IMG/VR virus record: IMGVR_UViG_3300027719_000006
Reading direction: 5' to 3' (one strand)
From: a virus
DNA length: 61,295 bases
The notes under the pieces were generated by a model that was given only the letters and a program-made list of their open reading frames with translations, had not been told where the DNA came from and searched no databases. Each line of letters opens with the position of its first letter. The first letter of the stretch is position 1. The position numbers and the translations under genes are program-made. Shown here piece by piece: positions 11,264 through 28,880 of the stretch.

Positions 11264-12106
11264 TTAACAACCTCCTGAAATTAGACTATAATTATCATAC
11301 TGATTTGTATTAAATATTAACACTGTGTTTAAATAACCATTTAAATATGTCGACACAGCTGGATAAGTGTTAAATCTTGCGCCAATACACACATTTGTAT
11401 CTGTATTTGTAATTGGAGTAGTATTATACGTTGCTGTTACTTCGCTACCATTTGCATTTATTTTTGAATTATTTGTACCAGTTTCCCATTTGAATAGTAC
11501 TTTATTAATTCCTATCGCATTTTGTATGGCAACACTATTTATTACTGTACTATTGTTTATATACGCTGTAATATTTCCAGCAATTCCAACTAATGATATA
11601 CTTCTATTCGACGTGTCACTATTTTTTGCAAATATGTAACTCGTATGACTACTTATATTGTTGTAATTTGTGTAAAAACTAATTGGTTGCACTGTTATTT
11701 GTATTGCTGCATAATTCAAACAAACTAAATAAGTATTTTCAATTGCAACAAACTTAATTCCATTTGTTTCAAAGACTCCATTTGTTGCAATTATTGGCAT
11801 ATTATTAAAAGTTGATTGAGTTGCATTAGGATATAAAAATTGGTCATACCATGTCTTCACACGACCTGTTGTGCCTGCACAAAATGATTCAATTGCTGAT
11901 ACATCTACATATGGATTCTTTAAAGCAAAATTAAATCCTACATTTAAAGTTGCTGAATCGCTAAGTCTTTGTACCTCAAGGCAATAACCTTTATACTTAT
12001 TTGTTAACAAATATAAACTTTTTCCAAACACACAACCATCAACATTATCTAGTATATATTTTCTTTTAGCACTCATAATAATTCTATTAACTGTAGACGT
12101 AGCCAT
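11264..12106 (-). CDS. hypothetical virion-module protein (280 aa), Asn/Thr/Ser-rich
   Basis: TAATG overlap with the upstream gene. No motif recognised. Located between capsid and connector genes. Confidence 0.6.
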   Translation of the reverse strand: MATSTVNRIIMSAKRKYILDNVDGCVFGKSLYLLTNKYKGYCLEVQRLSDSATLNVGFNFALKNPYVDVSAIESFCAGTTGRVKTWYDQFLYPNATQSTFNNMPIIATNGVFETNGIKFVAIENTYLVCLNYAAIQITVQPISFYTNYNNISSHTSYIFAKNSDTSNRSISLVGIAGNITAYINNSTVINSVAIQNAIGINKVLFKWETGTNNSKINANGSEVTATYNTTPITNTDTNVCIGARFNTYPAVSTYLNGYLNTVLIFNTNQYDNYSLISGGC

Positions 12107-12774
12107 TAAATAGCCACCACCTTCAATATTAACTTTTTAACAGCACTCGCCGTAGGCGTATAAGCTGTTCTAGTCTCAAGTACTCCGTACAAAGTTGTAC
12201 TACTTGCAGCTAACTTACCTTTAAAATTTAAATTGTCATTCTGACTCCAAAGTGTATCTCCCAAATCTATAGCTGCGGCAATGTCTATATATCCTAAATA
12301 TTTATCTCTATCTGCTGCAATTAAGTTAAACGCTGCATTATCTGCAATTGCCGTAGGAGCTGCATTATATATATGCAATCTAAACGCACCCATGCCAGCA
12401 GGTATTGCAGCAACATCAATTTCAAGATTAACACCAACTATAAAAAATCCTGAACCTGTAATATTTGATACACCACTAAATAATAAGTTTGTTCCTGGAT
12501 TAGTACCACATACATCACCTATAGCATATATGTCAGTATTATCAGGTCTGGCAGATGTGTCAGATACTTGACTATTGTTGCTGTACACAGGAACTGGATT
12601 AGTTGATTTGGCATCAACATTTTCAATTTGTAAATTAGCATCTTTGCTAACATTATTTAAATTATTAGTGTTAACAACAACATCGTTTAGCAATTCAGCA
12701 ATATTTACTGTGCTGCCATCTGGTAAATAAAAATCTCCAGAATTTGCTGAAAAATTAGAACCTTTTATATTCAT
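12106..12774 (-). CDS. hypothetical virion-module protein (222 aa)
   Basis: ATGA-type overlap with the upstream gene. No motif recognised. Confidence 0.6.
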   Translation of the reverse strand: MNIKGSNFSANSGDFYLPDGSTVNIAELLNDVVVNTNNLNNVSKDANLQIENVDAKSTNPVPVYSNNSQVSDTSARPDNTDIYAIGDVCGTNPGTNLLFSGVSNITGSGFFIVGVNLEIDVAAIPAGMGAFRLHIYNAAPTAIADNAAFNLIAADRDKYLGYIDIAAAIDLGDTLWSQNDNLNFKGKLAASSTTLYGVLETRTAYTPTASAVKKLILKVVAI

Positions 12775-13032: not shown

Positions 13033-14013
13033 TTAACTCCCAGCATTACCTAATACAGCAAATGGATATCTAGAGTCTTCATCTGTGTTGATTCTGTTTA
13101 TTGGATTTGGAACTTGCCATGCTATTCTCATGCAACTTCTTAATCCAACCATATTTTGCTGTGCCAAATTATATACGATTTCTCCTGTAACTGGGTCTTG
13201 TATAACAGATTCAGTCAACAGTTTCCAGGTAATATCTTTTCTTATTGCATACATTAATTTGTTCCATTCTCCACTAACTAACAATGACCTTGAAGGAACA
13301 ATGCTTCCGTTTCTTGGGAACAATACTTGTTCGCCATCCAATTCGTATCTTGTAGCACCTTGTACGCCTTCTTTATAAAGAGGTTTGAATATTGGATTAC
13401 CTGTTGAGTCTCTCAATGCTCTAAGCTTAGCTCTCATGCTCATAGCAGCAATGTGACCTGTAACCATATATCCATCTTCTTCAACTTTTGCAATTACACC
13501 ATTTTCGCCCATGATATCATCATATATATCACCAAGACTATTTAATGTTACAAAATTTCCAGCTGCTGTTGCTGCTGCTATTATATTTGTTGGCCATATT
13601 GCAGGTGCGTTAACTCCATATAATACAGCTTGGTCAAATGCTAAACCATAGGCTTCTAGTAGCTTAGGTCTGATTTCTGCCCAAATATCATAGTCGGCAT
13701 CATCTAATACAGACTCAGGGATAACAACAATAACATTTAACTCTTCTGCATCTAGATATTTATTTTCCCACATCATTCTAGTTGTCTTTTTCCATCCAAG
13801 AAAATCAGTTCCAGGGTTAGTTGGTCCAGGATTGGTAAAATATGTTGTAGGTAGTACTGATAAAATTGGTAATCTTCTTTGTGCTCTAGACATGTCTGGA
13901 GCTCTATAAGCAAGTGACATTATTGCACTTTGTTCAGCTACATTTTGAATAATTTCTCTTTGATATTCTTCTGGCATCAAAGCTTCTGCGCCACTACGTG
14001 GTATATAAGACAT
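13033..14013 (-). CDS. major capsid protein, HK97 fold family (326 aa)
   Basis: Position after the scaffold gene. Size and sequence character (SYIPRSGAEALMPEEYQREIIQNVAEQSAIMSLA...) are typical of HK97-family capsid proteins. RBS aaggaaaa. Confidence 0.85.
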   Translation of the reverse strand: MSYIPRSGAEALMPEEYQREIIQNVAEQSAIMSLAYRAPDMSRAQRRLPILSVLPTTYFTNPGPTNPGTDFLGWKKTTRMMWENKYLDAEELNVIVVIPESVLDDADYDIWAEIRPKLLEAYGLAFDQAVLYGVNAPAIWPTNIIAAATAAGNFVTLNSLGDIYDDIMGENGVIAKVEEDGYMVTGHIAAMSMRAKLRALRDSTGNPIFKPLYKEGVQGATRYELDGEQVLFPRNGSIVPSRSLLVSGEWNKLMYAIRKDITWKLLTESVIQDPVTGEIVYNLAQQNMVGLRSCMRIAWQVPNPINRINTDEDSRYPFAVLGNAGS

Positions 14014-14052
14014 TTGTTTTCCTTCTTTCGTATTAAGTTGAAAGAAATCCTA

Positions 14053-14709
14053 TTACCTTCCTGCTGCTTTTCTAATCAATTCTGTCATACTAAAAGGTGA
14101 TTTCTTATTGTTAACATTGCTTTGGTCATCTCCAACTTTAGTTTTAGTATCATCTGTATCAGCTTTTACTTTTTTAACTAAATGTGGTTTTAGTTGCATA
14201 ATTCTTTTTAATTCTTGTTCAACGCCTGTAATATTGCCATCGTCATCAACCTCAACATTTTCATTATTCAATAACAACATTGCTATATCTGAGTCGATAA
14301 ATCCAAGCTTTTCAGACATTTGTTTAACTTCAAACTTTATTAATTTCTTATTTGCCGCTTCAATTTTTGAATCTGTTATCTTTTGCAATTCTTCTTTTTC
14401 AAGTTTCAACCTATCTGCTTCTGTCATGTTTAATTTTTCTATTGCAGCTTTAACTTCTTTTTCTGTGTTTATTTTATGTTTTTTTGTAACTTTAGAAATA
14501 ATTAGATCTATTTCTTTTTGTGAATAAACTTTATCTTCTACTTTTGTTTCACTTGTTTTTTCATCATCTGTTGATTTAACTTCTGCATCATCAGTTGATT
14601 TATCTACTTCATCCTCTGATTTAGTTTCCTCTGCACCTATACCAACCATAGGTATAATCGGCATTAGAAAAATAATTGATAATAATCTTTTTAGTTTATT
14701 TATGTTCAT
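14053..14709 (-). CDS. scaffolding protein (DUF4355-like, 218 aa)
   Basis: Highly acidic, Lys/Glu-rich coiled-coil protein directly upstream of the capsid gene. RBS ggggg. Unusually hydrophobic N-terminus (LLSIIFLMPIIPMVGIGA). Confidence 0.75.
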   Translation of the reverse strand: MNINKLKRLLSIIFLMPIIPMVGIGAEETKSEDEVDKSTDDAEVKSTDDEKTSETKVEDKVYSQKEIDLIISKVTKKHKINTEKEVKAAIEKLNMTEADRLKLEKEELQKITDSKIEAANKKLIKFEVKQMSEKLGFIDSDIAMLLLNNENVEVDDDGNITGVEQELKRIMQLKPHLVKKVKADTDDTKTKVGDDQSNVNNKKSPFSMTELIRKAAGR

Positions 14710-14804
14710 ATTGACCCCCGTTTTAAGCTCGTCAGCATAAATTCCGTTTATAGTCCGTTTGACTCTTATTTTTATTATATATGTTTACTAGAAAAAAACA
14801 ACAC

Positions 14805-14842
14805 AAAAAAAGTTATGATTAAACTTTATCATAACTTTTTTT
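14805..14842. terminator. bidirectional rho-independent terminator
   Basis: Stem aagttatgat (14810..14819) / atcataactt (14828..14837), with an A-run before and a T-run after. Confidence 0.75.
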
Positions 14843-14874
14843 GTGATTATATTTTATTTAGTTGTGCTTTTTGT

Positions 14875-15342
14875 TTAAAATACTGCTAAATTTTTACATC
14901 CTATGATTTTACCATCTGAATCTCTAATTATTTCGCCAGGTAATAATAAGTCATCTCTTTCTCCTTGTTCGTCATAGTTGATTGGTTCTTTCGCAGCCAT
15001 TGCTACAATTATTGATACTACGTATTTAACTCCAATCATTCTTTCTGGCAAATTCTCAATCTTGCTAAAACTTTTTTTAATTAATTGGATTCCTGCAAAA
15101 TTTCCAGCATTTTCAATTGTTTCTGAAACTCTGCAAATACCAGAACTTTTTATTGCTTGCTGTCCTTCTATATTTATATCATGTGGAGTCAAGTTGATTA
15201 TTTTTTCAACTCTTAGAAGTTGATTACATCCGCATTCTTTACATTCTGACTCGTTTGAACTATCCCATTTTTCCCATTCGTCTTGATTAAAAAAATACGT
15301 TCTTCCGCATTCTTAACACTCGTATCTTTGTTTTTTATTCAT
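14875..15342 (-). pseudogene. zinc-ribbon protein gene interrupted by an in-frame TAA (15313..15315); alternatively a 105-aa product restarting at TTG 15192
   Basis: ATG 15342 has a strong RBS (gaggaga). Hand translation gives MNKKQRYEC*ECGRTYFFNQDEWEKWDSSNESECKECGCNQLLRVEKIIN, then runs in frame into the tracked ORF. The stop sits inside the first CxxC knuckle. Confidence 0.6.
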
Positions 15343-17075: not shown

Positions 17076-18206
17076 TTATATGTTTAAACTAGTTGCAATA
17101 CTTTTCAAACATTCTGCTGCTGTTTTTCCTGCCTTGCCTTTTAAGTTACTTGGATAAATATTTTCTATGAATTCCTTTTCTTTGTCTCCCATGCCTTTTT
17201 CTAATGCTATATCAATCATCTTGTTTAATTCTTTCATGTCTCTTGCATGATATCCTATTCCTTCGTTGTATATCCTATATTCAAAATTATCTTTATCATT
17301 CTTAAAGTGATTCAATACGCTATCTTTACATATCCAGTCAGGAAAAATTACAGGCTTTCCTATTATCCAAGCTTCATATAGTGTAGAACCTGCATCAGCA
17401 ATTACTACATCTGAGTCGACAAGCTCCTGAATAGTAGGTGTTTGTTTTTGTCTCTCATTCATCTTGCTTGTTGGATGAAGTGCTATCTTTGTTATGTAAT
17501 CCTTTGAAATTTCTTTGACCAACTTATTACATTGTGGATAGCTTGACCTTCCTTGATTCTTTGTATTATAGCCATGTGTAGGACACCATGCAACATATGG
17601 CTTGTTATATGTATTTCTTTTTACTTCACCATTTAAAATATCATCCAATTTAGTGTAGCCAGTAATAAATATTTCGCCTTTGTAACCAGTTTTTCTCATT
17701 CTATCTTCCCAAGCTTGCCCAGGCACAAAAGCATATTTGTATTCTCTTATATTTTCGCCTATCCAATAATTCTTATCTGCTATGCCATGACTTATAAAAA
17801 TGTCTTTGTCTCCAACTGGATACTTGCCTTGTTCATTTATTCTCATAGATGAAAAGAATCGACAATTTATTCCTGGAAATGGTCTATTAATCAAATCAGA
17901 TGAAGGAAGATGTTTTATTATTGGGTTAGCTAATGCAGCAATAGCAAACTTATAAGCTTCACCAGCATGTTGTCCTTGATTGTCTAGGCAAAAGTGAAAC
18001 TTGTTAGGATTAGGTTTAGTCAACCCATGTATTTTTGCGTATTCTGCATTATTTAATTTACCTACTCTTAACCCTTTATTGCATCGTATATTTCTAAAAG
18101 TTTCAGATGTGCTTCCAAGATTAACGATTTTCTCCTTAAATGGTTCAAAGTCTAAACCATCAATAGAAATTTTATAATGACACTTATTAAATATATTTAC
18201 TAACAA
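17076..18206 (-). CDS. CDP-glycerol/ribitol (poly)alditol-phosphate transferase, TagB/TagF-like GT-B protein (376 aa)
   Basis: TTG start 5 nt after the strong RBS aggaggtga. Motifs KPYVAWCPTHGYN (compare the YAPTWR motif of Glyphos_transf) and DSDVVIADAGSTLYEAWIIGKPVIF (C-terminal Rossmann of GT-B). A PseG-like role cannot be excluded. Confidence 0.6.
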   Translation of the reverse strand: MLVNIFNKCHYKISIDGLDFEPFKEKIVNLGSTSETFRNIRCNKGLRVGKLNNAEYAKIHGLTKPNPNKFHFCLDNQGQHAGEAYKFAIAALANPIIKHLPSSDLINRPFPGINCRFFSSMRINEQGKYPVGDKDIFISHGIADKNYWIGENIREYKYAFVPGQAWEDRMRKTGYKGEIFITGYTKLDDILNGEVKRNTYNKPYVAWCPTHGYNTKNQGRSSYPQCNKLVKEISKDYITKIALHPTSKMNERQKQTPTIQELVDSDVVIADAGSTLYEAWIIGKPVIFPDWICKDSVLNHFKNDKDNFEYRIYNEGIGYHARDMKELNKMIDIALEKGMGDKEKEFIENIYPSNLKGKAGKTAAECLKSIATSLNI

Positions 18207-18210
18207 TGTT

Positions 18211-18843
18211 TCACCTCCTAATAGTTATATTTTGTCCATCTAAAAATGGTATATCTTTATCTAAGATTGATACTATAAAGTCTGCTATCTCATCAGCTTT
18301 CAACATATTTTCAAAATCATCATCTGGACAAATTTTGAATCTCATTTTAGATCCAAAAGCTTCAGGAGATATGCAATATACTTTTATACTGTTTTCTTTC
18401 AAACTCTCTGACAAACTCAAGCTAAAACTTATTACCGCCGCTTTGCTTGCAGCATATGCAAATCTATCCGGTCTTACTCCTGTGCCTGCTGTACTTGATA
18501 TGTTTATTATGTTGCCAGGTATATCATTTAAGATACAAAAATCTACATATGTTTTGCATAAGTTAACCATGGCAAAAAAGTTTACTTCAAATTGTTGTTT
18601 AACATCATCCATAGTTGTTTCTAAAATATTGCCAGGTATACATACTCCAGCATTATTTATCAGTGCAACTGGTAAATCTCCCAAATCACTTAAGAAACTA
18701 TTTACAGCTTCATAATCTGTTATATCAAGGTTATTCCATTTTGACAATCCATAATAATTTCTATCTTTATCAGACATACACCACTTTTTAGCAATTGCAC
18801 TTCCTAATTTGCCTTCACTTCCAGAAATTATTATGTTACTCAT
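18211..18843 (-). CDS. short-chain dehydrogenase/reductase (210 aa), candidate sugar-phosphate reductase
   Basis: Classical SDR motifs: N-terminal glycine-rich ISGSEGKLGSAI, NNAG, and catalytic S...YAASK. Overlaps the cytidylyltransferase gene by 8 nt. Confidence 0.75.
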   Translation of the reverse strand: MSNIIISGSEGKLGSAIAKKWCMSDKDRNYYGLSKWNNLDITDYEAVNSFLSDLGDLPVALINNAGVCIPGNILETTMDDVKQQFEVNFFAMVNLCKTYVDFCILNDIPGNIINISSTAGTGVRPDRFAYAASKAAVISFSLSLSESLKENSIKVYCISPEAFGSKMRFKICPDDDFENMLKADEIADFIVSILDKDIPFLDGQNITIRR

Positions 18844-19525
18844 TTGTAATTGTACCTTTCTTATACTTGTATATAGTTTCAGCTAATTTCAAATCAAGTG
18901 GTGTAGTAATTTTAATATTTTCTTCTAATCCATTGACTGTTGAAAATTCTTTGTACATCTGATAATAAGTGTATATATCATCTGAGTCATCTTCTCTATT
19001 TTGCATTTTTGCCTCAAGGTGACTATTTATAAGAAGTTCAGTGTTGAATTTTTGAGGCATCTGAACCTCTCCTATTTCGTTTCTATTGAATGCTTCAAAC
19101 CTTGATATTGGAGTAGATGCAGTATATTTTATAGGTGTTACAGCTTCACCATTTTTACAATTAACAGTGTTGAATAATTCTTCTGTAATAAAAGGTCTTA
19201 CTGCCTCAGATATAAAAACATAATCCGAGTTAACTTCTAATAAAGCATTGTATACTGAAAATTGCCTTGTTTCTCCTTCTCCAATTAAAATAAATCTGCT
19301 CATATCAAATTGATATGCTTTCAATATTTCAGAAGTTAATTTCATATCACATGTAACTATGATAATGTTGTCAATATAGTCTATGTTTGTTGCAACTTCC
19401 AAACCATGTATAAATATTGGTTTAAATCCTAATCTAGAAAATTGTTTAGGATATCCTAAATTTGTCCTGAATCCTTTTCCACCCATTAGATAAATTAGAT
19501 CAGCTTTCTCCATTTGTTTCTCCAT
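18836..19525 (-). CDS. IspD/TarI-family sugar-phosphate cytidylyltransferase (about 229 aa)
   Basis: N-terminal LMGGKGFRTNLGYPKQFSRLGFKPIFIHGLE matches the aGG.G.R....PKQf..l.gkPi signature. ATG 19525 has GAGG 9 nt upstream. The track's 19534 and ATG 19513 are alternative starts. Confidence 0.7.
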   Translation of the reverse strand: MEKQMEKADLIYLMGGKGFRTNLGYPKQFSRLGFKPIFIHGLEVATNIDYIDNIIIVTCDMKLTSEILKAYQFDMSRFILIGEGETRQFSVYNALLEVNSDYVFISEAVRPFITEELFNTVNCKNGEAVTPIKYTASTPISRFEAFNRNEIGEVQMPQKFNTELLINSHLEAKMQNREDDSDDIYTYYQMYKEFSTVNGLEENIKITTPLDLKLAETIYKYKKGTITNE

Positions 19526-20957
19526 CAATTTCATCCTCTACTTTGTCTATTTCTTTCTTTTTTGTTCTTGTCTTCTTGACTACATTTTTCTTGAATACTC
19601 TTGTTATATATTCCTCATGCAATCCAAATTCTTTAGTGCAATTGTATTCTTCTATTTGAGTAAAATTATATTGTTCAAAGACATCCTTATAATTTCTTTT
19701 AAATGTTCTACTACCATCTTTTGTTTCAATTTCTATTACTACCAACATTTTACAAGCATATGCTATTTTCTCAAATATCCAATCTGAGTCAGGATGAACA
19801 TGATTAAACACTGCCATGCTTATTCCTAAATCAAATTCATTTTCTGTGAACCCTGTAACTCCGCTTACAAAATGTTCAATAGTTCCATGCATAACATTTA
19901 TAGATTCTGCCATTTCTGAATATTCTTTTTGCATTAGTTTTATTGCGTCCGAATTTAATTCTATTCCAGATAAATTTTTATGTCCTTTTTGGAATAGATA
20001 ATTTAAGTTCCTACCACAGTTACAGCCATATTCTATTATGTTAGATTTTTCTGTAATATATTTTTGTACAATGTTGTACAAGAATTCGCTTCTTTCTGTG
20101 TGTACAATATATTTGTCTGTAGTATTCTTCGAAGGTGGATTTGACCAATATTTTAATGCTTCTTTTAATGTTAATGGAACTATTGTATCTTTCTTAATGC
20201 CTTTATTTTTTAATGCATTGTCAAATGTTTTATCCATTTTAATCCTCTTTTCTTTTAATCTTAATTTATGCAAAAATATTTTTTGTATCTCCCAATCATG
20301 CCTTATCTTAGGAGTCCTAGGTTTTTTATTATCCTTTCTAACTAGTCTCTTTTTACTGTCTTCCCAAAGCCAATCTGGAGATACTGTATATCCACTATTA
20401 TACCCAGTTCCATAGAAGTCACATCCACAAATATATAATTCTTTTAAGGATGTTTGCAGTAAATACACAATGGCTAATGTTGACATGTTTGGGTCTGTAT
20501 TCTCTAGTTTAGCTCTTAGCTTTCTAAGAAAAAATGTTTCTATTGCAACCATTTTAATTTTACTACTTCTTTGTTCGATTAAGTCTGTCAATTTGTCTAT
20601 CATTACTTTTTCAGCTTTTCCACCAGTAATAGGGTTTCTTTTAGATATGAACCACTTTAATTTATTCAACTCCAATGTTTCTATTCTTCCTAGTTTAAGT
20701 TGATTAGCTGCATATTTTAAAGTTGTATTGACTGCTCCTGTGTGAAATAAAACATCTGTTCTGCTGCCTAAATCTACAAATGATTCTTTCTTAATTGGAT
20801 AGCTATTATTTAATCTTACAACTATATCATAGCTATCAATAAACTTGCCCATTCCACTACCATCTAGATACTGAGCTGGTCCAACTATGATAACTTTTTT
20901 ATTGTTTACATATTTGAAAAAGTCTTTTCTATTGCTTACATATTCCATGGCATCCAT
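19500..20957 (-). CDS. two-domain protein: sialyltransferase-like (GT29/GT42-type) nonulosonate transferase fused to a class I SAM methyltransferase (485 aa)
   Basis: N-terminal KKVIIVGPAQYLDGSGMGKFIDSYDIVVRLNNSYP...LGSRTDVLFH resembles sialyl motif L. DPNMSTLAIVYLL..LKELYICGCDFYGTGYN resembles motif S. The C-terminal IIEYGCNCGRNLNYL is SAM motif I. Confidence 0.55.
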   Translation of the reverse strand: MDAMEYVSNRKDFFKYVNNKKVIIVGPAQYLDGSGMGKFIDSYDIVVRLNNSYPIKKESFVDLGSRTDVLFHTGAVNTTLKYAANQLKLGRIETLELNKLKWFISKRNPITGGKAEKVMIDKLTDLIEQRSSKIKMVAIETFFLRKLRAKLENTDPNMSTLAIVYLLQTSLKELYICGCDFYGTGYNSGYTVSPDWLWEDSKKRLVRKDNKKPRTPKIRHDWEIQKIFLHKLRLKEKRIKMDKTFDNALKNKGIKKDTIVPLTLKEALKYWSNPPSKNTTDKYIVHTERSEFLYNIVQKYITEKSNIIEYGCNCGRNLNYLFQKGHKNLSGIELNSDAIKLMQKEYSEMAESINVMHGTIEHFVSGVTGFTENEFDLGISMAVFNHVHPDSDWIFEKIAYACKMLVVIEIETKDGSRTFKRNYKDVFEQYNFTQIEEYNCTKEFGLHEEYITRVFKKNVVKKTRTKKKEIDKVEDEIDGETNGES

Positions 20958-21668
20958 TTACTTTGCCTCCTTTATTAACTTTGCTAAAACATCATCAAAA
21001 TATAATCTATTATCTCTATTTTGTAACTTTTTCAAATAAGACAATTGTATATCTTTAAAATGTCCATTTTTAGGCATAGTAAACGTCATGCTCTTCTCTC
21101 TGACTAGCTTGTTTTGCGAATCATCCCATACCCAACCAGGCGTAATTGTATAAGCTTTGTTATATCCAGTTCCATAGAAATCACAACCACATACATACAA
21201 CGTTTTCAAGTCAGTTTTCAATAAATAATCTATTGCTATGGTTGACATGTTAGGTTCTGTTTTATTCAGTTGTATTCTTAGATTTTCTAGAAATTTTAAC
21301 TCGATAGGAAGTACTTTTATTTGACCAGTTCCATCTTGCTCAATTTCATTTATCAATTTTGTAACATTTGGTGCTTCTGCTTTTCTCTTTGATACATACC
21401 ATCTTATCCCGTCATTATTTAGTGTCTTTACATCTGTAAAAATACCGCCAGTATGGAATAAAATGTCTGTTCTACTTCCTAAATTGCTAAAATCACACAA
21501 AGGATAACTGTTATTCAACCTTATTATTACATCATATTTGTCTATGAACTCGCCATGGTTTGATCTTGATAAATAATCGGCTGGTCCAACTATGATGCAT
21601 TTTTTGTCTCTAACAGTTTTGTTAAAAGTTTCAAAATCTCTAATTGTTCTCATTATTTTTAAAATCAT
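20958..21668 (-). CDS. sialyltransferase-like (GT29/GT42-type) nonulosonate transferase, paralogue of the N-domain of 19500..20957 (236 aa)
   Basis: KKCIIVGPADYLSRSNHGEFIDKYDVIIRLNNSYP..LGSRTDILFH and EPNMSTIAIDYLL..LKTLYVCGCDFYGTGYN align colinearly with the neighbouring gene. The start is uncertain (21668 or 21653). Confidence 0.55.
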   Translation of the reverse strand: MILKIMRTIRDFETFNKTVRDKKCIIVGPADYLSRSNHGEFIDKYDVIIRLNNSYPLCDFSNLGSRTDILFHTGGIFTDVKTLNNDGIRWYVSKRKAEAPNVTKLINEIEQDGTGQIKVLPIELKFLENLRIQLNKTEPNMSTIAIDYLLKTDLKTLYVCGCDFYGTGYNKAYTITPGWVWDDSQNKLVREKSMTFTMPKNGHFKDIQLSYLKKLQNRDNRLYFDDVLAKLIKEAK

Positions 21669-22308
21669 CTCTCATTTCTATTAAATTTATTATGTCTTCG
21701 ACTTTCTTAAAATCGTCCAAGGTGTCTACACTATATTTACCATTTATTACTTTTCCAAAACAATTAACTTCACTTTTTTTATAATTTTTGTTGTTTCTAA
21801 TCCATGGTGTAACATGTTCTCTGTCATATCCCACGGCGAAATCATTTGCAGCAAATAAAGCCTCAATTGTCATAACTTCGACATCTAATCCGCTTGGATA
21901 TCCTTTCAACCCCCTATTCCATGTATAATCATTCTTTTTTTCTATATGTTCTTCTATGACTAAATCTATTATCCATTTAAAGTAAAACAGTAGTGGACAA
22001 TCCGAAGTTATTCTTACTACATTTTCGATTTTGCTATTCTTTTTATATTCTTCAAAGGCTATGCTATAATATCTTTTCAGTACGTCACTACTATCCCCAC
22101 TAAATACCCTTACATTATTAAAATTATCAGTAAATATTTTCGTCTTATCTCCTTCGTCAGGAACAGCTAAAAATACTTTATTTACATATTTAGCTTTGCA
22201 GGCTGCTAGATAAGAGTAATTTGTCATAGGTATATTTAACATTTCCTTCATACATTTTCCTGGGAATCTTGATGATTCTAGTCTTGATTGAATAATTGCT
22301 ATGTTCAT
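21640..22308 (-). CDS. nonulosonate cytidylyltransferase (SpsF/PseF-like, CTP_transf_3), 222 aa
   Basis: N-terminal IAIIQSRLESSRFPGKCMKEM matches the iQaR.gS.RlPgK signature of SpsF-type cytidylyltransferases. Adjacent to the NeuB-like gene. Confidence 0.65.
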   Translation of the reverse strand: MNIAIIQSRLESSRFPGKCMKEMLNIPMTNYSYLAACKAKYVNKVFLAVPDEGDKTKIFTDNFNNVRVFSGDSSDVLKRYYSIAFEEYKKNSKIENVVRITSDCPLLFYFKWIIDLVIEEHIEKKNDYTWNRGLKGYPSGLDVEVMTIEALFAANDFAVGYDREHVTPWIRNNKNYKKSEVNCFGKVINGKYSVDTLDDFKKVEDIINLIEMRDDFKNNENN

Positions 22309-22309
22309 T

Positions 22310-22933
22310 TTACATTATCTCCTTTAGTTGCCTTGGTGTTCTTGCAAATTCGCCACTGTCTAACCCTGTTGTATTCTCTAATTTATAGTGCCATTCTATT
22401 ATTTCAGGCTTATATATATTGTATAACTCAAATGTTGCTGTATGGTCTGATATATTATCGCCTCGCAACATTCCCAAATCTTCATATTCTTTTCGATAAG
22501 CTGGGTAATTAGACACACACCAAAGATGAGTTACTCTTCTTTTAAAATCTACTGAATAACTATATTTGTATGAAGAAATATAAACATCTATATTTTTTGG
22601 AACATGTTTTACAAGGCTATGTAAAGTTTTATTATTTGCTATTTTTACAAATGGTATATTATAATTCAATAAAAATTTTAATGATTCTATGTCAAATACT
22701 GAGGCAGTAACATTGTATCCTAAGTATTTTCCGTATCTATAAGCTAAATCAAATTTATCCATTTCCAAAGGTGTATTTAATCCAGCTGATTTAAACAATT
22801 GCCATTTTATAGTTATTTTAGTTTTGCCTGAGTCTATTTTCTTTAACTCATTGTACATTTCTTTTATTATGTCATCATCATTCAAACAAGTGTTGCCACT
22901 TCCAAAATCTAATACTATCTCTTTAGTCTTCAT
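22310..22933 (-). CDS. NeuB-family nonulosonic acid synthase (PseI/LegI/SpsE-like) TIM-barrel domain only (207 aa, no SAF domain)
   Basis: Motifs KWQLFK, ASVFDIESLKFLLNYNIPFVKIA, LWCVSNYPA and ISDHT, then IEWHYKL. These follow the order of NeuB-family signatures. The protein is short relative to typical family members. Confidence 0.6.
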   Translation of the reverse strand: MKTKEIVLDFGSGNTCLNDDDIIKEMYNELKKIDSGKTKITIKWQLFKSAGLNTPLEMDKFDLAYRYGKYLGYNVTASVFDIESLKFLLNYNIPFVKIANNKTLHSLVKHVPKNIDVYISSYKYSYSVDFKRRVTHLWCVSNYPAYRKEYEDLGMLRGDNISDHTATFELYNIYKPEIIEWHYKLENTTGLDSGEFARTPRQLKEIM

Positions 22934-24008
22934 CTTCCTGTCTCCTTAAAAACATATTTATCGAGTCAGCAATACCATTTCTGAGATAGAATTTTAATCC
23001 AACAAATAATGGTATAGAAACTATTATGTCTTTTATTAGTTCTGTATTTTTGCAATTTTCTTTTGATTGGTCTGTGTAATCTGAATAATATTGATTTTCA
23101 TAGATAGGTCTATAGTGAACTCCACAATTTATATTATTAGTTTTCATATATTCTATAAATTCCTGCCTATCTTTCATCTTTATGACAAATAAATGGTTGG
23201 CATGATTATTTTCTTTTTTGAGTAAGATTTCTTTAGGAAGTTTTCTTCTGTATTCTTGTGCTTGTTCTTCTCTCCTATTAAGGAATAAACCGATTTTCTT
23301 TAACTGGGATATCCCTAAAGCCGCTTGCATTTCATTCATTCGATAATTATATCCTAGTATAGTTTGTGTAAATCCATCATACCTTCCATGATTTATAAAC
23401 GCTTTAATATATAAATATGTTTCAAAATCATTAGTTAGACACATTCCACCTTCTCCAGTTGTGATATTTTTAACTGGATGAAATGAATAGCATGTTATAT
23501 GAGAATATTCTTTGTCATTGCAGCTACTTGTCAAGGCTCCTACTGAATGACAGGCATCTGAAATTAACTTTAAGTTATATTTATCGCATAGTTCATTTAG
23601 CTTTATATAATTACACATTTGTCCAGCATAATCCATAGCTATCACTGCTTTTGTCAACGGAGTTATAAGTTTTTCTATGTTGTCTATATCTATTAACAAT
23701 GTGTTAATATTTACATCTGCAAATACTGGTACACAGTCGCAATACTTGACACAATTCGCAGTAGCCAAAAATGATAATCCTGGAACTATTACTTCGCTGT
23801 CTTTTTCTAAATTTAATGAACTTATTGCAGAGTGTAAAGCAGCTGTCCCAGATGACATTGCTATGGCATACTTGTAACCAGTATATTCACACATTTGTTC
23901 TTCGAATTGTAAAACTTTTGTACCTTGTGTTAAAAAATCAGAATTCATCACATTTGTAACTGCTTCTGTATCATTGTAATCTATCCATTGCTTTCCATAG
24001 TTAATCAT
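22923..24008 (-). CDS. DegT/DnrJ/EryC1-type PLP aminotransferase (PseC/SpsC-like), 361 aa
   Basis: Motifs FLTQGTKVLQFEE, MSSGTAALHSAI and the PLP-lysine context YSFHPVKNITTGEGGMC. Confidence 0.8.
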   Translation of the reverse strand: MINYGKQWIDYNDTEAVTNVMNSDFLTQGTKVLQFEEQMCEYTGYKYAIAMSSGTAALHSAISSLNLEKDSEVIVPGLSFLATANCVKYCDCVPVFADVNINTLLIDIDNIEKLITPLTKAVIAMDYAGQMCNYIKLNELCDKYNLKLISDACHSVGALTSSCNDKEYSHITCYSFHPVKNITTGEGGMCLTNDFETYLYIKAFINHGRYDGFTQTILGYNYRMNEMQAALGISQLKKIGLFLNRREEQAQEYRRKLPKEILLKKENNHANHLFVIKMKDRQEFIEYMKTNNINCGVHYRPIYENQYYSDYTDQSKENCKNTELIKDIIVSIPLFVGLKFYLRNGIADSINMFLRRQEDED

Positions 24009-24966
24009 TTATAATATTCCTCATTTCATCAACCGTATAAAATAGATCTTCGTTGTCTGATGTGTAATTTAAAATACTGTGTTCTTTTATATTTTTTACA
24101 GATTCTTTATTTTTATATACAACAAAATAATTTTCGAATTCTTCAGTTCTAATTGATTCATCTTCTGAAATTAATATTTCATTTATCTTTTCGCCTTGTC
24201 TAGTACCAACAAACTTAATTTTTATATTAGGATTTATTGCTTCTACTAACTCAGTTATTTTCATTGATTTTATTTTAGGTATGAATATCTCTCCACCTTT
24301 CATATTCATCAATGCAAATATAACTATATCTATCGCCTGTTCAATCTTCATGAAAAACCTAGTCATATCTTTATCTGTAACATTAACTATATTTTTATCA
24401 ATTATTTGTTGTTTGAATTTTGGTATAACTGAACCTCTAGAACTTAGTACATTTCCATATCTAACACATGACATAGTTGTATATTTTGTAGAATAGCAAT
24501 TACCATTAATAAATATTTTCTCAAGACACATTTTAGTGCCTCCGTATAAATTTATAGGGTTAACTGCCTTATCTGTGCTTAATGCTACAACTTTTCTGAC
24601 CTTGCAATCTATAGCAGCATTTGCGACATTCATTGCTCCGAGTATATTTGTTTGTATTGCTTCGAATGGATTATCTTCGCAGGATGGAACTTGCTTTTGA
24701 GCAGCTGCATGTATAACAAAATCTATGTCATAAAATGCTCTTTTAAGTCTTTGGTAATCTTTTATATCTCCAATTAAGAAAGAAATCTTGATGCTATTTC
24801 CAAACTCTTCTCTCATCAAATCTTGTTTGAATTCATCCCTGCTATAAATGTATATCTGTTGTACATCATAATTATCTAGCAAGTATCTTGTAAATGCTTT
24901 GCCAAATGTACCAGTTCCACCAGTTATTAAAATCCTTTTGCCGTTCAGTATATTTGTATTTATCAT
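24001..24966 (-). CDS. UDP-GlcNAc 4,6-dehydratase (PseB/FlaA1/CapD/SpsM family), 321 aa
   Basis: Motifs ILITGGTGTFGKAF, YSRDEFKQ, STDKAVNPINLYGGTK and VRYGNVLSSRGSVIPKF are the hallmarks of Polysacc_synt_2. Confidence 0.85.
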   Translation of the reverse strand: MINTNILNGKRILITGGTGTFGKAFTRYLLDNYDVQQIYIYSRDEFKQDLMREEFGNSIKISFLIGDIKDYQRLKRAFYDIDFVIHAAAQKQVPSCEDNPFEAIQTNILGAMNVANAAIDCKVRKVVALSTDKAVNPINLYGGTKMCLEKIFINGNCYSTKYTTMSCVRYGNVLSSRGSVIPKFKQQIIDKNIVNVTDKDMTRFFMKIEQAIDIVIFALMNMKGGEIFIPKIKSMKITELVEAINPNIKIKFVGTRQGEKINEILISEDESIRTEEFENYFVVYKNKESVKNIKEHSILNYTSDNEDLFYTVDEMRNIIND

Positions 24967-25040: not shown

Positions 25041-25373
25041 TTAAAAATTATCTATTCTGAAAATTCTTTTTGAGTCTTCGTTTAATTTTTGTTTTATGAA
25101 TAACAATTCTTCTAATGAAAAATATGTTATTGAATCTTTGCTCTTGCCTCCAAGGCTACATATTTTATTACAAAGTGTGCCTTTAGTTATTTTTAACTCA
25201 GTAGCTAACTGTTTTAGAGATATTTGATTTTCTTTTAACTGGTCTCTTAGGCAATCACTATCAATGATATAATTTAAATCAGCCAAATTAGATAAATATA
25301 TAATATCTTCAATAGTTATATTTTTAAATAATTCTAATCGTTCTGATATTGTTAACTTATTTTTTTTCTTCAT
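25041..25373 (-). CDS. small HTH protein (110 aa)
   Basis: ISLKQLATELKITKGTLCNKI looks like a helix-turn-helix. Overlaps the GNAT gene by 17 nt. Confidence 0.5.
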   Translation of the reverse strand: MKKKNKLTISERLELFKNITIEDIIYLSNLADLNYIIDSDCLRDQLKENQISLKQLATELKITKGTLCNKICSLGGKSKDSITYFSLEELLFIKQKLNEDSKRIFRIDNF

Positions 25374-25905
25374 AACTCATATAAAAATCAAACTTATTAA
25401 TATTAAAATATAAACTATCCCAAAACTCATGGTCATAAAATTTTCTTGAAGGTAACAATGTTTTATAACCTTTATATTTATCGGCTATCTTCTCCCAAAA
25501 TTTTATAGCTGGCTTATTGCACTTGTAACATTCACCATAAATATTAGTTAAATGCATATTTCCAAATGCATGTTTAAGCAAGCACTCGACCGATTCAGTT
25601 CCATAACCTTTTCCAGTATATTCAGGATTAACTATTAATGATATCTCTGCTATAGAGTTTTCATATTCTATGTTTGTGATTCCTCCAAATGCAACAAATT
25701 CAGCATTATGATAAAACCCCTCAGCAATGCTCTCTATTGCAAAATATCTATGTTTACTATTTCTATTAGATATAACTTCTTTATAAAATTTTTCTTGCAT
25801 TTCAGTACTTGTAAAATATGGGGTTCTAAGTGTTTCTATTTTGTCATTTCTCCATTTTATTATATCTATACAATGTCCTAACTCTACACTAGCTAATTTA
25901 ATCAT
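25357..25905 (-). CDS. GNAT N-acetyltransferase (PseH/SpsD-like), 182 aa
   Basis: N-terminal ...IDIIKWRNDKIETLR resembles PseH-type proteins. GNAT core LIVNPEYTGKGYGTESVECLLKHAF. RBS gaggaga. Confidence 0.7.
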   Translation of the reverse strand: MIKLASVELGHCIDIIKWRNDKIETLRTPYFTSTEMQEKFYKEVISNRNSKHRYFAIESIAEGFYHNAEFVAFGGITNIEYENSIAEISLIVNPEYTGKGYGTESVECLLKHAFGNMHLTNIYGECYKCNKPAIKFWEKIADKYKGYKTLLPSRKFYDHEFWDSLYFNINKFDFYMSYEEKK

Positions 25906-26205: not shown

Positions 26206-27372
26206 TTAACTTATTTGCTCTCTTGCATAATTTCTATTCAAATATCTATTTTTATTAAGATGTTCTCTTTGTACCTTTTGCCATTCTCTAACTTTATCAT
26301 TCATTGCTTTTTTATCTCTATCAGTTAATTGTACATCTTTGAGTCTTTTGTATTTTCTTATCTGTCTTTCATTATATCGTTGCCTTTGTTGTTGCTGATA
26401 AGTATATTTCTGAGCTTCCTCATATCCCATATCATTTATTAATTTTCTTTCTGCATAATCTATACTGGCGTTAACTTTATCTGTATGTTCCAAGTATACC
26501 GACATACCATGCTTGCAATTTGGATGAAATAACCCGTCTAATATTGCTTCATCTACTGTTTTGTATCCTGGAATAGGTTGAATGGAAAGTATCTCGCCTT
26601 CAAATTGAGCGCAAACATCACAACTTCTAAAATGTGCTGTAATTTGTACTAGTTCATACCCTCCCTCTTGAAATGCGTTTAGTGAACCCTGTAATGAAGC
26701 CCTACCTGACATTGTTCGACCTACCATTTCGCAATATGTGTCTAAGGAATGTTTTGCACCATTTTTATATGTTATACTTTGCAATCCAGCTTTGGCATAG
26801 TTATTTAATAGTCTCTGTGAAAATTGTTTTCTTGTCATTACATTTCCTTCTATAAATTCACTTGTTCCTGTTTCAATGGCTATTTTTCTAAATAAATCGT
26901 CAGTTGTTCGAATAATTTGAATACCTGTGCCATCCCATGTATTAATTGCCGCTTCTCTGAAAATATTATAAAATCTAATATGATTCTTGTATTCAGTAAA
27001 TTCAGATGTTATTTTAATCGGAATAGTTGTATTAGTTGGTGCTGTATGTTTAATTAAAGATGAACCATTTTTTATATCAGCAACTACAGGTGAACTTAAA
27101 CCATTTTGTAATAATTGTTTTTGGGCATCTTTTATTCCAATTAAATAAGAATCTGCTATGCCATAATTTGACCACTTTTTAGCATCTTGCTCAAATTTTA
27201 CAGCAATCTTTTTCACTTCTTTTTCATAAAACATTCTTATTCTTGAGATATCCCCTGGGTTTTTAATAAGTCTTTCATTAACATTTTTAAGCAATACACC
27301 TATTCCAAAAACAACTTCCTCAGAGGCTAATATCAAGTCATCAGCTAAATATTCATAAGTTCCAGCATCCAT
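26206..27372 (-). CDS. minor head protein, SPP1 gp7 / Mu F-like (about 388 aa)
   Basis: Follows the portal gene. Motifs CDVCAQFEGEILS and HPNCKH. The tracked start 27381 is a GTG inside the RBS ggtga; ATG 27372 follows it by 5 nt. Confidence 0.8.
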   Translation of the reverse strand: MDAGTYEYLADDLILASEEVVFGIGVLLKNVNERLIKNPGDISRIRMFYEKEVKKIAVKFEQDAKKWSNYGIADSYLIGIKDAQKQLLQNGLSSPVVADIKNGSSLIKHTAPTNTTIPIKITSEFTEYKNHIRFYNIFREAAINTWDGTGIQIIRTTDDLFRKIAIETGTSEFIEGNVMTRKQFSQRLLNNYAKAGLQSITYKNGAKHSLDTYCEMVGRTMSGRASLQGSLNAFQEGGYELVQITAHFRSCDVCAQFEGEILSIQPIPGYKTVDEAILDGLFHPNCKHGMSVYLEHTDKVNASIDYAERKLINDMGYEEAQKYTYQQQQRQRYNERQIRKYKRLKDVQLTDRDKKAMNDKVREWQKVQREHLNKNRYLNRNYAREQIS

Positions 27373-27383
27373 TTTTATCACCT

Positions 27384-28880
27384 CTAAGCTTCAGGATTGA
27401 AAATGTCTGTTTCACTTTGCATGCTATTTTCTTCTTTGATTTTTTCTACCTCTGCCATAATATCTTCGATTGACCAATTTGGATGTTGCATCTTAACTTT
27501 TATTTCTGTGCTTATTGCCCTTGCCTGATCTAAGCTCTTTATAGTTTCACTCATCTCAGAATTATCTATAATTATGGAATCTTCTAGTTCAACATTAAAT
27601 TCATTGGGGTTATAATAATTATTATATAAAATATCTAATTGTTGAGCTTGTTTTAATATACTTTCTATACCTTGTATCCAGTATCTTTCCTTTTTCCCTC
27701 GAGTAGAAAAACTTTTCTTTTCTCTCACCCTCAAAGCAGTTCCAGACTCAGCCATGCCACCAATGTCTAATCCAAATGTCTGTGTAGAATATCCACACAT
27801 ATTTACAATATTCTTAAAAAGAGTTTCGCATGATTTAATATGTTCATCTACTCTCATTTCAAATTGAACGACTTTTATTGGTTCTAGTGATTCGCCGCCC
27901 ATTCTCCAGCTGCTTAAATTTAGTTTAAGAAATGTCTTTTGAAATTTACTAAACTTATTTAATACAGTTTTCTCGCTGCCATAAATTGTTGTATCTTCCC
28001 TTTGTAACAAGTCTTCATCAATAAATATTTGTCCCATGCCTAACTCAATATCCCTTATTAAACTTGTCCATGCTAAGTCAAGGCTATCTAGCAATGGTAT
28101 ACATCCAGAATAATCATTAATTCCCAAGGATGAACCTGGGAAAATTTTATTAGGTCTCATGTTTGGAATATATGTACATCCTAATCCATCTATAGCCCAT
28201 GCTACATCAACTAAATTTAGGTTCATTGTTTCTTCCAATGATTCCAATGGCATCACATGACCAACTTTGTCAATTGTTCCTTTGTATAATCTGTATTCAA
28301 TTAAAGTTGTACTTTTTTCAATTTTCCTATTCTCAAATAGCCTATAAAATACACCTGAACTATAGTCTTCTTTCACTGTTCTCCAGAATAAAACTTCTAC
28401 AAGTCTACCTCTATGAAATGTCGGGAATGCATTTTCTGGAATTACACATGATATTATAGGAAGCTTAGAAATGCTCGTGTCTATGTCTAATTTTAGAAAT
28501 ACACCTGTTAAAGCGGCGGCAATTTCGGCAGCTTCTAACAGTATATTGTTGAATCCATTTTCTTTTATAATGTCTTTCATTCTTTGACCTGATACTGATT
28601 TTTCGTCATAAGCATATCTTGGAGACTCAGAAAATAACAAGTTTGCGCTTGTAGCTGCAATATCTCCAGCCGCTGGCATGTTTACAGCGTTTGCCCTTTC
28701 TTCTGCGTCTATTCTTGCCCAAAATATTTTGTTTTCAAATTGAGAATTAGCAATCTTTGTTGTATAGTATTTTAACAATTCCTCGGAGCTTCCAGAGTAC
28801 CATGCCCCATATTCACTATATTTGTCATACCAAAACGACCATTCTAAAGGTGGAAAGTGAGTTCCTTCTTTTATAAACAT
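27384..28880 (-). CDS. portal protein (SPP1 gp6-like), 498 aa
   Basis: Size and position between terL and the MuF-like gene. RBS gaggtg. Confidence 0.8.
   Translation of the reverse strand: MFIKEGTHFPPLEWSFWYDKYSEYGAWYSGSSEELLKYYTTKIANSQFENKIFWARIDAEERANAVNMPAAGDIAATSANLLFSESPRYAYDEKSVSGQRMKDIIKENGFNNILLEAAEIAAALTGVFLKLDIDTSISKLPIISCVIPENAFPTFHRGRLVEVLFWRTVKEDYSSGVFYRLFENRKIEKSTTLIEYRLYKGTIDKVGHVMPLESLEETMNLNLVDVAWAIDGLGCTYIPNMRPNKIFPGSSLGINDYSGCIPLLDSLDLAWTSLIRDIELGMGQIFIDEDLLQREDTTIYGSEKTVLNKFSKFQKTFLKLNLSSWRMGGESLEPIKVVQFEMRVDEHIKSCETLFKNIVNMCGYSTQTFGLDIGGMAESGTALRVREKKSFSTRGKKERYWIQGIESILKQAQQLDILYNNYYNPNEFNVELEDSIIIDNSEMSETIKSLDQARAISTEIKVKMQHPNWSIEDIMAEVEKIKEENSMQSETDIFNPEA

Follow-up and report, generated by a model that had tools for sequence, protein, structure and literature searches.

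The 61,295-nt viral stretch IMGVR_UViG_3300027719_000006 of IMG/VR, here called the window, is a tailed-phage genome with a G+C content of ~29%, and nearly all of its transcription runs from the minus strand. It encodes two adjacent paralogues, a short copy and a long copy, which are members of the prokaryotic/viral branch of Pfam family GT29 by hidden Markov model (HMM) score, fold and conservation of sialylmotifs L and S. We give a probability of about 0.7 to the following explanation as a whole: the pair are GT29-branch transferases of a nonulosonate activated with cytidine monophosphate (CMP), the long copy is fused to a methyltransferase, the short copy is a duplicate, and both act beside polyol-phosphate genes on an acceptor of the virion.

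In the proposed scheme, the two soluble cytoplasmic enzymes, of modified GT-A 'variant 2' fold, would transfer a pseudaminic acid (Pse)-type nonulosonate from its CMP form, which is most likely made by the adjacent PseB-, PseC-, PseH-, PseI- and PseF-like genes. By taking in the S-adenosylmethionine (SAM) methyltransferase gene that followed it, the long copy would have coupled sugar transfer and methylation physically; the predicted methylation target is the transferred sugar or its acceptor glycan. The short copy presumably has an acceptor of its own or attaches one more residue; the original prediction had likewise suggested two acceptor specificities, or sequential transfer followed by methylation. 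The neighbouring IspD-like, short-chain dehydrogenase (SDR) and TagF-like genes would add polyol phosphate from a cytidine diphosphate (CDP)-polyol.

Both open reading frames (ORFs) are present on the minus strand exactly where the original prediction had placed them (Table 1), and the motif strings it quoted were found in the translations: KKCIIVGPADYL / KKVIIVGPAQYL, FIDxYD(V/I)(I/V)xRLNNSYP, LGSRTD(I/V)LFH, (E/D)PNMST(I/L)AI, LY(V/I)CGCDFYGTGYN and IIEYGCNCGRN, plus a Lys/Glu-rich tail. It had also claimed a common N-terminal domain of ~235 residues; in a pairwise BLASTP alignment the copies share 46% identity across 248 columns (E=3e-69) and are homologous. The genes abut, with the stop of the short copy at 20958 and the start of the long copy at 20957, and the pair overlaps the genes on either side, upstream that of the cytidylyltransferase (21640..22308) and downstream the IspD-like one (18836..19534). 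It is part of one dense minus-strand string, directly 3' of the PseB/PseC/NeuB-like/CTP_transf_3 genes.

Family, fold and predicted active site

All animal sialyltransferases belong to GT29. The Pfam model of this family, PF00777 (Glyco_transf_29), scores 38.5 bits with the short copy and 39.8 bits with the long copy, against a gathering cutoff of 23; the long copy aligns with HMM positions 55-208, and 25 of the 28 aligned relatives match the model at E<=0.01. When a 28-sequence profile was compared with all PDB sequences, ST3Gal1 came top (E=1.6e-4), then ST6Gal1, ST8Sia3 and ST6GalNAc2; CstII followed with a full-length but weak match (E~0.16-0.3). A search of the PDB with the single GT29-like sequence gave marginal matches only. 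The GT42 Pfam model had no match at E<=0.1 in either paralogue or in the 28 family members, and Maf/MAF_flag10 (PF01973, DUF115) matched neither the paralogues nor any of the 28. By sequence, the two proteins are members of neither GT42 nor Maf. NCBIfam and PHROGs were also searched, and no model in them matched the GT29-like domain.

The AlphaFold2 model of the short copy has a predicted local distance difference test (pLDDT) score of 84.9 and a predicted template modelling score (pTM) of 0.86. As ranked by Foldseek against the PDB, its top 31 matches are all sialyltransferases (best E=1.9e-7, TM score ~0.5), ST3Gal1, ST6GalNAc2, ST8Sia3 and CstII among them. Ranks 1-24 and 26-31 are GT29 structures, rank 25 is CstII (GT42, E=2.7e-4), and a kinase of MptE/DUF115 type (MptE HPPK, 8sd5) follows at rank 32 with E=7e-3. 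Structural matches in BFVD include proteins with a GT29 annotation from ChoanoV1, from herpes- and poxviruses and from an uncultured Caudovirales phage; those of ChoanoV1 and of the Caudovirales phage were annotated automatically. The likeness to GT29/GT42-type sialyltransferases proposed in the original prediction is thus borne out by PF00777 scores above cutoff and by profile-PDB and Foldseek searches whose top matches are all sialyltransferases; neither an unrelated fold nor non-homologous domains were seen in the structure and HMM comparisons.

Residue conservation was calculated from 149 sequences, comprising 147 diverse representatives and the two paralogues, and is given in short-copy numbering. 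In motif L (xVVG...G..ID..D.V.R.N), which the HMMER alignments to ST3Gal1 and ST6Gal1 span, Lys22 is conserved in 96% and Pro29 in 98% of the sequences, Asp46, Arg50 and Asn52 in 99%, and Gly28 lies within 96-99%. The family consensus of motif S is RPN(T/S)G...ITGF(T/D)F(F/Y), with Gly161 at 99%; in the window clade this motif reads PNMST, where Ser replaces the usual Gly (93% Gly in the family). Tyr173 is conserved in 89%. In the motif VS region, His203 (91%) stands in an H-x4-Q context, with Gln208 at +5 (80%) instead of the Glu of H-x4-E. A profile of the C-terminal half placed His203 opposite His188, the catalytic base of CstII, and GCDFY opposite GIDFY of CstII, whose last residue is Tyr156; this alignment is weak alone (E=0.43). 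Both paralogues retain every family-invariant residue, His203 of the short copy included, and therefore both look catalytically competent. By analogy with GT29 and GT42, we predict metal-independent, inverting chemistry with the invariant His (residue 203 of the short copy, residue 220 of the long one) acting as the general base; contact with the donor phosphate may be made by the conserved Tyr residues that follow GCDFY.

Neither paralogue contains a transmembrane segment (maximum 19-residue Kyte-Doolittle values of 0.84 and 1.24). The type II topology and the L-S disulfide of animal enzymes were not found, and Cys positions are unconserved. Because the published bacterial GT29 set also lacks them, the membrane anchor and the disulfide are marks of the eukaryotic subgroup only. 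That set (Petit et al. 2018, Sci Rep, PMC5811610) comprises 23 'bacterial GT29' sequences, 19 of them alphaproteobacterial, which have no transmembrane anchor or conserved cysteines, keep the sialylmotifs, are basal to the eukaryotic enzymes and were left unassigned in function. The window proteins belong to the same Pfam family and depart from the animal enzymes in the same ways. However, the published set came with no genomic-context or functional inference, whereas the window genes are phage-borne, duplicated, methyltransferase-fused, Pse-linked and located in a head module.

The best profile and structural matches are eukaryotic and eukaryotic-virus GT29 enzymes (ST3Gal1 2WNB, ST6GalNAc2 6APL, ST8Sia3 5BO6, ST6Gal1 4JS1). 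They have in common with the phage pair motif L (xxVVG...G..ID..D.V.R.N) and an S-like motif, and a His lies near the C-terminus in an H-x4-(Q/E) setting. Different from them, the phage proteins, at 13-17% identity and TM ~0.5, are soluble and have no stem or transmembrane region, the short copy being only ~236 residues in size; Gln replaces Glu at VS +5, and instead of Neu5Ac a bacterial 5,7-diamino nonulosonate is predicted as the donor. The GT42 enzymes CstII and CstI of Campylobacter share the fold, the positions of His188 and Tyr156 correspond in the weak profile alignment, and they too are bacterial-type soluble or peripheral proteins; however, the phage pair has no Pfam GT42 match and its sequence signal to GT42 is weaker than that to GT29. 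To our knowledge, Maf is the only established family of protein-directed transferases of Pse or legionaminic acid (Leg). The Maf flagellin Pse/Leg transferases would be the closest functional analogue of the phage pair if the acceptor is a protein, although they are larger, three-domain proteins and the pair has no PF01973 match. The central domain of Maf is of GT29/GT42-like modified GT-A fold (bioRxiv 10.1101/2022.03.25.485807, 10.1101/2020.06.03.131540).

Relatives are numerous. A word-indexed search returned 26 only, every one an unnamed metagenomic protein, while an exhaustive HMM search returned 5,703 cluster representatives at E<=1e-3, of which 505 also passed E<=1e-30; multidomain proteins are common among them. 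Since two near-complete GT29-like domains are carried in one chain by 9 of the 147 top representatives, tandem duplication is a recurring theme of the family. A tblastn search with three GT29-like proteins (the short copy and those of loci L014 and L052) found no match in 50,697 deposited phage genomes, and neither did the DNA of the cassette, by which we mean the transferase pair with its donor and polyol genes, in 50,697 GenBank phages; no cultured phage model came out of these searches. A tight-alignment scan of 185,579 species-representative genomes gave a single match, the free 59,884-bp contig JAFGQB010000135.1 (L083), which had been binned into the 'Spirochaetes bacterium' metagenome-assembled genome (MAG) Zod_Metabat.719. 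Similarly, a homologue of the 376-residue TagF-like protein, encoded on a 58-kb contig, carries the label 'Clostridiales bacterium'. Both are probably phage contigs mis-binned into MAGs, and their labels are for that reason unreliable as host evidence; the scan identified neither a host nor a prophage.

Relatives are also encoded by giant-virus MAG (GVMAG) contigs (L050, L059, L066-L070 and L072) and by ChoanoV1 of the Mimiviridae (BFVD A0A5B8HVK7 and A0A5B8IFN6); in most of the fetched flanks of the giant-virus relatives, no linked cytidylyltransferase was detected. A literature search, with most subscription journals outside its coverage, found no paper on phage GT29-like genes and none on phage-encoded complete Pse pathways or head-module ulosonate cassettes. 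Prokaryotic GT29-like sequences are already known and have been catalogued, though never given a donor, an acceptor or a biological role; what is new is the phage-borne, duplicated, methyltransferase-fused version with a Pse-type pathway in a head module, an unusually clean context.

Predicted donor genes and the methyltransferase fusion

The original prediction placed the pair directly downstream of CMP-nonulosonate synthesis genes and named the two proteins as candidate users of that donor. The upstream genes do match a Pse-type pathway in Pfam, NCBIfam and profile searches. The PseB-like protein scores 378 bits with its best model, TIGR03589 (cutoff 407.75), versus 58.6 bits with LegB, and TIGR03588 is the best model of the PseC-like protein, at 327.7 bits (cutoff 423.5) versus 215 bits for LegC. 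The NCBIfam matches of the PseH-, PseI- and PseF-like proteins are weak. Orthologues of the candidate PseH lie inside the cassette in every sister locus. In the PDB, a clade profile of the PseI-like protein matched the pseudaminic acid synthase 8h2c best (E=9.6e-4), and a search with the single 207-residue sequence found nothing. PseI proteins are ~340 residues in length; in the 207-residue protein the N-terminal part of the barrel and the SAF domain are missing, and it has the same size in all sister phages. A Pse-type nonulosonate is the best reading of the donor from these matches. The 376-residue protein, which has a weak Epimerase_2 match, was considered as the missing PseG/NeuC-like hydrolase and dropped, as its fold rank favours TagF/TarL.

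A scan of IMG/VR found 121 viral stretches encoding relatives of the pair, of which 80 loci were kept; two more from encoding-contig look-ups brought the set to 82 loci. Gene co-occurrence was counted by jackhmmer domain envelopes, since single-sequence phmmer misses divergent CTP_transf_3 and KdsA-like genes. A CTP_transf_3-like gene is present in ~61 of the 82 loci (the set includes 11 IspD ORFs, so ~61 and not 62 is given); in about 20 no more than 50 bp separates it from the GT29-like gene, and in five (L028, L032, L035, L037 and L041) a single ORF holds both. The protein P0031 even combines two GT29-like domains and CTP_transf_3 in one chain. A synthase gene occurs in 49 of the 82 loci, NeuB-like in 24 and KdsA-like in 25, and the two sets are disjoint; at L014, Pfam confirms both the KdsA-like gene (DAHP_synth_1, 232 bits) and the CTP_transf_3 gene. 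Since most viral loci have CTP_transf_3 next to the GT29-like gene or fused with it, there is good support for a CMP-ulosonate donor in the GT29-like family, and the role predicted for the pair is strengthened. The donor range within the family appears broad, because some phages pair GT29-like genes with KdsA-like synthases.

GT29-like genes are found bracketed by, or fused to, CMP-ulosonate enzymes, of Pse type in the window and of 3-deoxy-D-manno-octulosonic acid (Kdo) type in other phages. This context makes 'bacterial GT29' a directly testable class of Pse/Kdo transferases, enzymes that are scarce and wanted for glycoengineering and as antivirulence targets.

The extra class I methyltransferase domain expected on the longer copy was recovered with Methyltransf_25 (32.8 bits, cutoff 27) and Methyltransf_11 (32.4 bits, cutoff 21.2) over residues 307-401, and in the PDB it matches the SAM methyltransferase 3sm3 (E=7e-6). 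Its motif I, E-Y-G-C-N-C-G, is unchanged in eight methyltransferase orthologues. In sister phages, a single GT29-like gene is followed by a stand-alone methyltransferase gene of ~195-200 codons, immediately in L002, L006, L010 and L076 and with one ORF between in L001, L005 and L012. The window domain aligns end to end with the stand-alone ORFs of seven loci at 36-47% identity. Being orthologous to the stand-alone gene 3' of the sister GT29-like gene, it represents a true fusion of two neighbouring genes. An assembly artefact is excluded as its source, because P0028, an independent ~95%-identical variant of 485 residues, and locus L004 keep the fused reading frame. Among the seven stand-alone orthologues, one (L006) has a comparable acidic C-terminal extension, though much longer than the window tail, and six have none.

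TIGR03587, the pseudaminic-acid-biosynthesis-associated methylase model, is the best NCBIfam model in all eight methyltransferase orthologues (best E=1.3e-15); as the window domain scores 37.6-40.1 bits and the equivalog cutoff of 112 is not reached, this gives a hint only of a link to Pse biosynthesis. A fusion between GT29 and a methyltransferase in nature is a sign of functional partnership.

Head-module setting and the acceptor

On one side the cassette is flanked by the genes of the portal and of minor capsid protein 2 (26206..28880), on the other by those of the scaffold and the major capsid protein (13033..14709). The original prediction mentioned neither this setting nor the TagF-like rival transferase. 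Placement in the head module, from minor head protein to scaffold/capsid, was seen in 45 of the 82 loci and comes in three arrangements. The first is that of the window clade, with the full Pse-type pathway. The second (L013-L042) runs terminase, portal, Mu-F minor head protein, KdsA-like, GT29-like, CTP_transf_3, scaffold and major capsid protein, and the third (L048-L058) runs minor head protein, NeuB-like, CTP_transf_3 and GT29-like. The content of the cassette has been exchanged among phages and its position retained. Because the phages share SPP1-like head genes, the 45 positions are not independent observations. The loci of the second arrangement have the look of a Kdo-type cassette, for example L014 5144..7168 and L020 3861..7146, and the L020 region holds MurB-like and GT2 genes in addition.

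The acceptor is the most tentative part of the scheme. A virion head protein, or a glycan on one, is favoured because the cassette lies among head genes and occupies the same place in many other uncultured phages, and we hold this assignment at somewhat less than even odds. Freeman and colleagues are said to have described, in 2023, mycobacteriophages that encode cytoplasmic glycosyltransferases glycosylating their own capsid and tail proteins; those enzymes are reportedly GT2/GT-A-type hexosyltransferases that use host nucleotide sugars and are encoded outside the head module, with no nonulosonate, Kdo or polyol phosphate involved. As a tentative and slightly bolder generalization, phages with SPP1-like heads that carry a synthase, a CMP-activating enzyme and a GT29-like transferase may decorate their capsids with acidic 8- or 9-carbon ulosonic sugars, in a widespread and undescribed system of virion 'sialylation'; the window clade would have expanded this minimal cassette with the full Pse pathway, methylation and polyol-phosphate addition. 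The recurrent head-module site raises the possibility of many uncultured phages with sialic-acid-like capsid coats, and such coating, if true, would bear on the stability and adhesion of phages and on their recognition by the immune system. It would also be the first function for the prokaryotic/viral GT29 branch, the proposed ancestor of eukaryotic sialyltransferases.

Instead of the virion, the cassette could remodel a polymer of the host envelope (wall teichoic acid, an S-layer or flagellin glycan, or capsule), for superinfection exclusion or to prevent progeny from re-adsorbing to lysed cells. CDP-polyol synthesis by IspD and SDR together with a TagF/TarL-fold transferase is a hallmark of teichoic-acid chemistry, the relatives of the capsid protein come from phages of Gram-positive Clostridia, and the window encodes Rha and KilA-N, regulators typical of temperate phages. 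In addition, two reports document phage enzymes that alter nonulosonate-containing host capsules in Acinetobacter (PMC12053666, PMC6586298). However, the cassette genes are embedded in the late head-morphogenesis string, and a promoter/terminator scan, whose counts were at chance level, found no coding-strand terminator-like site within the cassette stretch that would set it apart from the genes for portal and minor capsid protein, which is a weak argument. There was also no sign of a flippase, polymerase, ligase or lipid-carrier priming transferase, and no integrase was detected among the window ORFs scanned. The lone match in 185,579 species genomes, on a free phage-sized contig, gives no sign of lysogens, and the head-module position is also found in phages whose cassette consists of synthase, GT29 and cytidylyltransferase only. 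We consider envelope remodelling, the main alternative, unlikely, and a virion acceptor remains our preferred reading.

Several points weigh against the overall explanation. Its Pfam and PDB sequence matches are mostly confined to motif L, the C-terminal alignment to CstII is weak by itself, and the residue at +5 after His is Gln where motif VS has Glu. No PseG homologue was identified in the cassette and the PseI-like protein is both short and highly diverged, which makes the exact sugar uncertain; every Pse model, moreover, scores under its NCBIfam cutoff. The head-module position may be inherited synteny among related SPP1-like phages, not function, and the 376-residue TagF/TagB-like protein is in a wider fold class that includes Pse/Leg transferases of Tannerella. 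Finally, prokaryotic/viral GT29-like proteins are without any biochemical characterization (PMC5811610).

Two observations were made at the downstream end of the cassette. At 14802..14845, between the scaffold gene and a small ORF (14875..15192), there is a perfect inverted repeat of 18 bp that has T-rich tails on each strand and resembles a bidirectional terminator hairpin; it is the only strong hairpin from the portal to the capsid genes. Just downstream of the major capsid gene, two minus-strand genes (11264..12774) encode proteins of 222 and 280 residues; residues 34-97 of the latter match the Pfam model of the alpha-L-arabinofuranosidase B catalytic domain just above its cutoff (28.5 bits, cutoff 25). 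The 280-residue protein may bind carbohydrates or be a decoration protein, and is a candidate for the role of acceptor or partner.

Predicted polyol-phosphate genes and the second copy

An IspD-like cytidylyltransferase together with an SDR is the combination expected for CDP-ribitol-type synthesis (Bcs1/TarIJ). The two window genes would follow the logic of a Bcs1-type CDP-ribitol synthase, by analogy. The adjoining 376-residue protein has no Pfam domain and its single-sequence PDB search was empty; its NCBIfam matches to TarB and BFO_1060 are weak (BFO_1060 E=0.003). Its AlphaFold2 model (pLDDT 89.6) retrieved TagF (3l7j, E=2e-9), Staphylococcus aureus TarL with CDP-ribitol (8va1) and TagF-like capsule polymerases in Foldseek. 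It is the best-conserved member of the cassette, with at least 211 homologues at 50-66% identity, mostly on phage-sized contigs of 55-62 kb; these outnumber the 26 word-indexed GT29-like matches. Its gene is contiguous with the IspD and SDR genes in every sister locus. The simplest pairing joins CMP-nonulosonate with the GT29-like proteins and CDP-polyol with the TagF-like transferase.

Because of its marginal BFO_1060 match, in a family that includes Tannerella enzymes, the 376-residue protein is kept as a minor rival: it could be the real nonulosonate transferase, and the GT29-like proteins could hydrolyse or edit a CMP-sugar or use another CMP-ulosonate, for example host CMP-Kdo. Genetic evidence supports a Pse/Leg transferase role for BFO_1060/Tanf_01245, which have a TagB-like GT-B domain (PMC5420450), and in Tannerella forsythia they stand beside the Pse/Leg pathway and have the TagB/TagF-type GT-B fold, as in the phage protein. 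The linkage of GT29-like genes to KdsA-like and not NeuB-like synthases in other phages agrees with this alternative as well. However, the fold of the Tannerella enzymes is unlike that of the GT29-like pair, and the likeness of the 376-residue protein to them is marginal. Its gene always adjoins IspD and SDR, a context that points to CDP-polyol, and the structures that the protein matches best are of enzymes for CDP-glycerol and CDP-ribitol. Among the ~61 of 82 loci in which GT29-like and CTP_transf_3 genes occur together, only 12 have the 376-residue protein; single polypeptides fuse GT29-like domains with CTP_transf_3, and the catalytic His and the CMP-binding residues of motif L are conserved in the GT29-like family. 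Taken together, we regard this alternative as very improbable and retain the GT29-like pair as the nonulosonate transferases.

Compared with the single-copy orthologues of other phages (P0002-P0014), the long copy is 41-49% identical and the short copy 35-42%; in the same comparison the two copies are 49% identical to each other. Two insertions of about 12 and 6 residues are present in the long copy and all close relatives and are missing from the short copy. Within the cassette-bearing clade, two copies are found only in the window's own species (L004, and L003, which is truncated). A PS_pyruv_trans (polysaccharide pyruvyl transferase) gene lies directly upstream of the GT29-like gene in the sisters L001 (3989..7071) and L002 (8910..9998), and likewise in L005, L006, L007, L011 and L012; in some sisters a ~400-codon ORF with a second methyltransferase-like motif, FLDIGCNAGY, lies downstream. 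The window has neither gene, and its short copy sits in the pyruvyl-transferase slot. Judged from these comparisons, it is the long copy that is orthologous to the single-copy GT29-like gene of the sister phages. The short copy is read as a recent, faster-evolving, lineage-specific duplicate, because of its lower identity, its lack of both insertions, its restriction to the window species and its position. That it is in decay or has no enzymatic role, serving for example as structural partner to the fusion protein and leaving only one catalytically relevant copy, would agree with its faster divergence and the two lost insertions, but is most unlikely, as it holds all family-invariant residues including His203, is an intact ORF 96% conserved across independent assemblies (P0001, L003, L004) and is confidently folded by AlphaFold2.

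Table 1. Positions of the GT29-like pair, its domains and the surrounding genes in the window
Feature	Coordinates	Strand	Evidence
SPP1-type portal, upstream flank of cassette	27384..28880	-	Pfam SPP1_portal 76.9 bits
Minor capsid protein 2, upstream flank of cassette	26206..27381	-	Phage_min_cap2 119.8 bits
GNAT acetyltransferase, candidate PseH	25357..25905	-	TIGR03585 28 bits, weak (cutoff 93.1)
PseB-like inverting UDP-GlcNAc 4,6-dehydratase	24001..24966	-	Polysacc_synt_2 327.7 bits; TIGR03589 378 bits
PseC-like aminotransferase	22923..24008	-	DegT_DnrJ_EryC1 332 bits; TIGR03588 327.7 bits
NeuB/PseI-like nonulosonate synthase, 207 aa, divergent, no SAF domain	22310..22933	-	Pfam NeuB 25.4 bits (cutoff 22.1)
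CTP_transf_3 cytidylyltransferase (PseF/NeuA/KdsB family)	21640..22308	-	Pfam 80.6 bits; PDB 6oew E=3.5e-16
Short GT29-like paralogue, 236 aa	20958..21668	-	Soluble; sialyltransferase fold; predicted CMP-nonulosonate transferase
Long GT29-like paralogue, 485 aa (GT29-like + methyltransferase + tail)	19500..20957	-	ORF translation
GT29-like domain of long paralogue, aa 1-250	20208..20957	-	PF00777 39.8 bits over aa 20-164
Class I SAM methyltransferase domain of long paralogue, aa ~259-458	19584..20183	-	Motif I EYGCNCGRN
Lys/Glu-rich C-terminal tail of long paralogue, 27 aa + stop codon	19500..19583	-	Translation
IspD-like cytidylyltransferase (CDP-polyol synthesis)	18836..19534	-	Pfam IspD 88.6 bits; ribitol-5-P cytidylyltransferase subfamily model 89 bits
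Short-chain dehydrogenase (SDR), partner of IspD-like gene	18211..18843	-	adh_short 93.1 bits
TagF/TarL-fold protein, 376 aa, predicted polyol-phosphate transferase	17076..18206	-	AlphaFold2 + Foldseek
Scaffold, downstream flank of cassette	14053..14709	-	Phage_scaffold, weak match
HK97-type major capsid protein	13033..14013	-	tblastn 42-49% identity to Clostridia phage major capsid proteins

In the replication module of the window, a minus-strand gene (47802..49103) encodes a 433-residue protein with PAPS_reduct/PP-loop and DUF3440 domains. It is neighboured by SNF2- and RecD-like helicases, an FtsK-like ATPase and RecT, and may be an enzyme of DNA modification or nucleotide metabolism.

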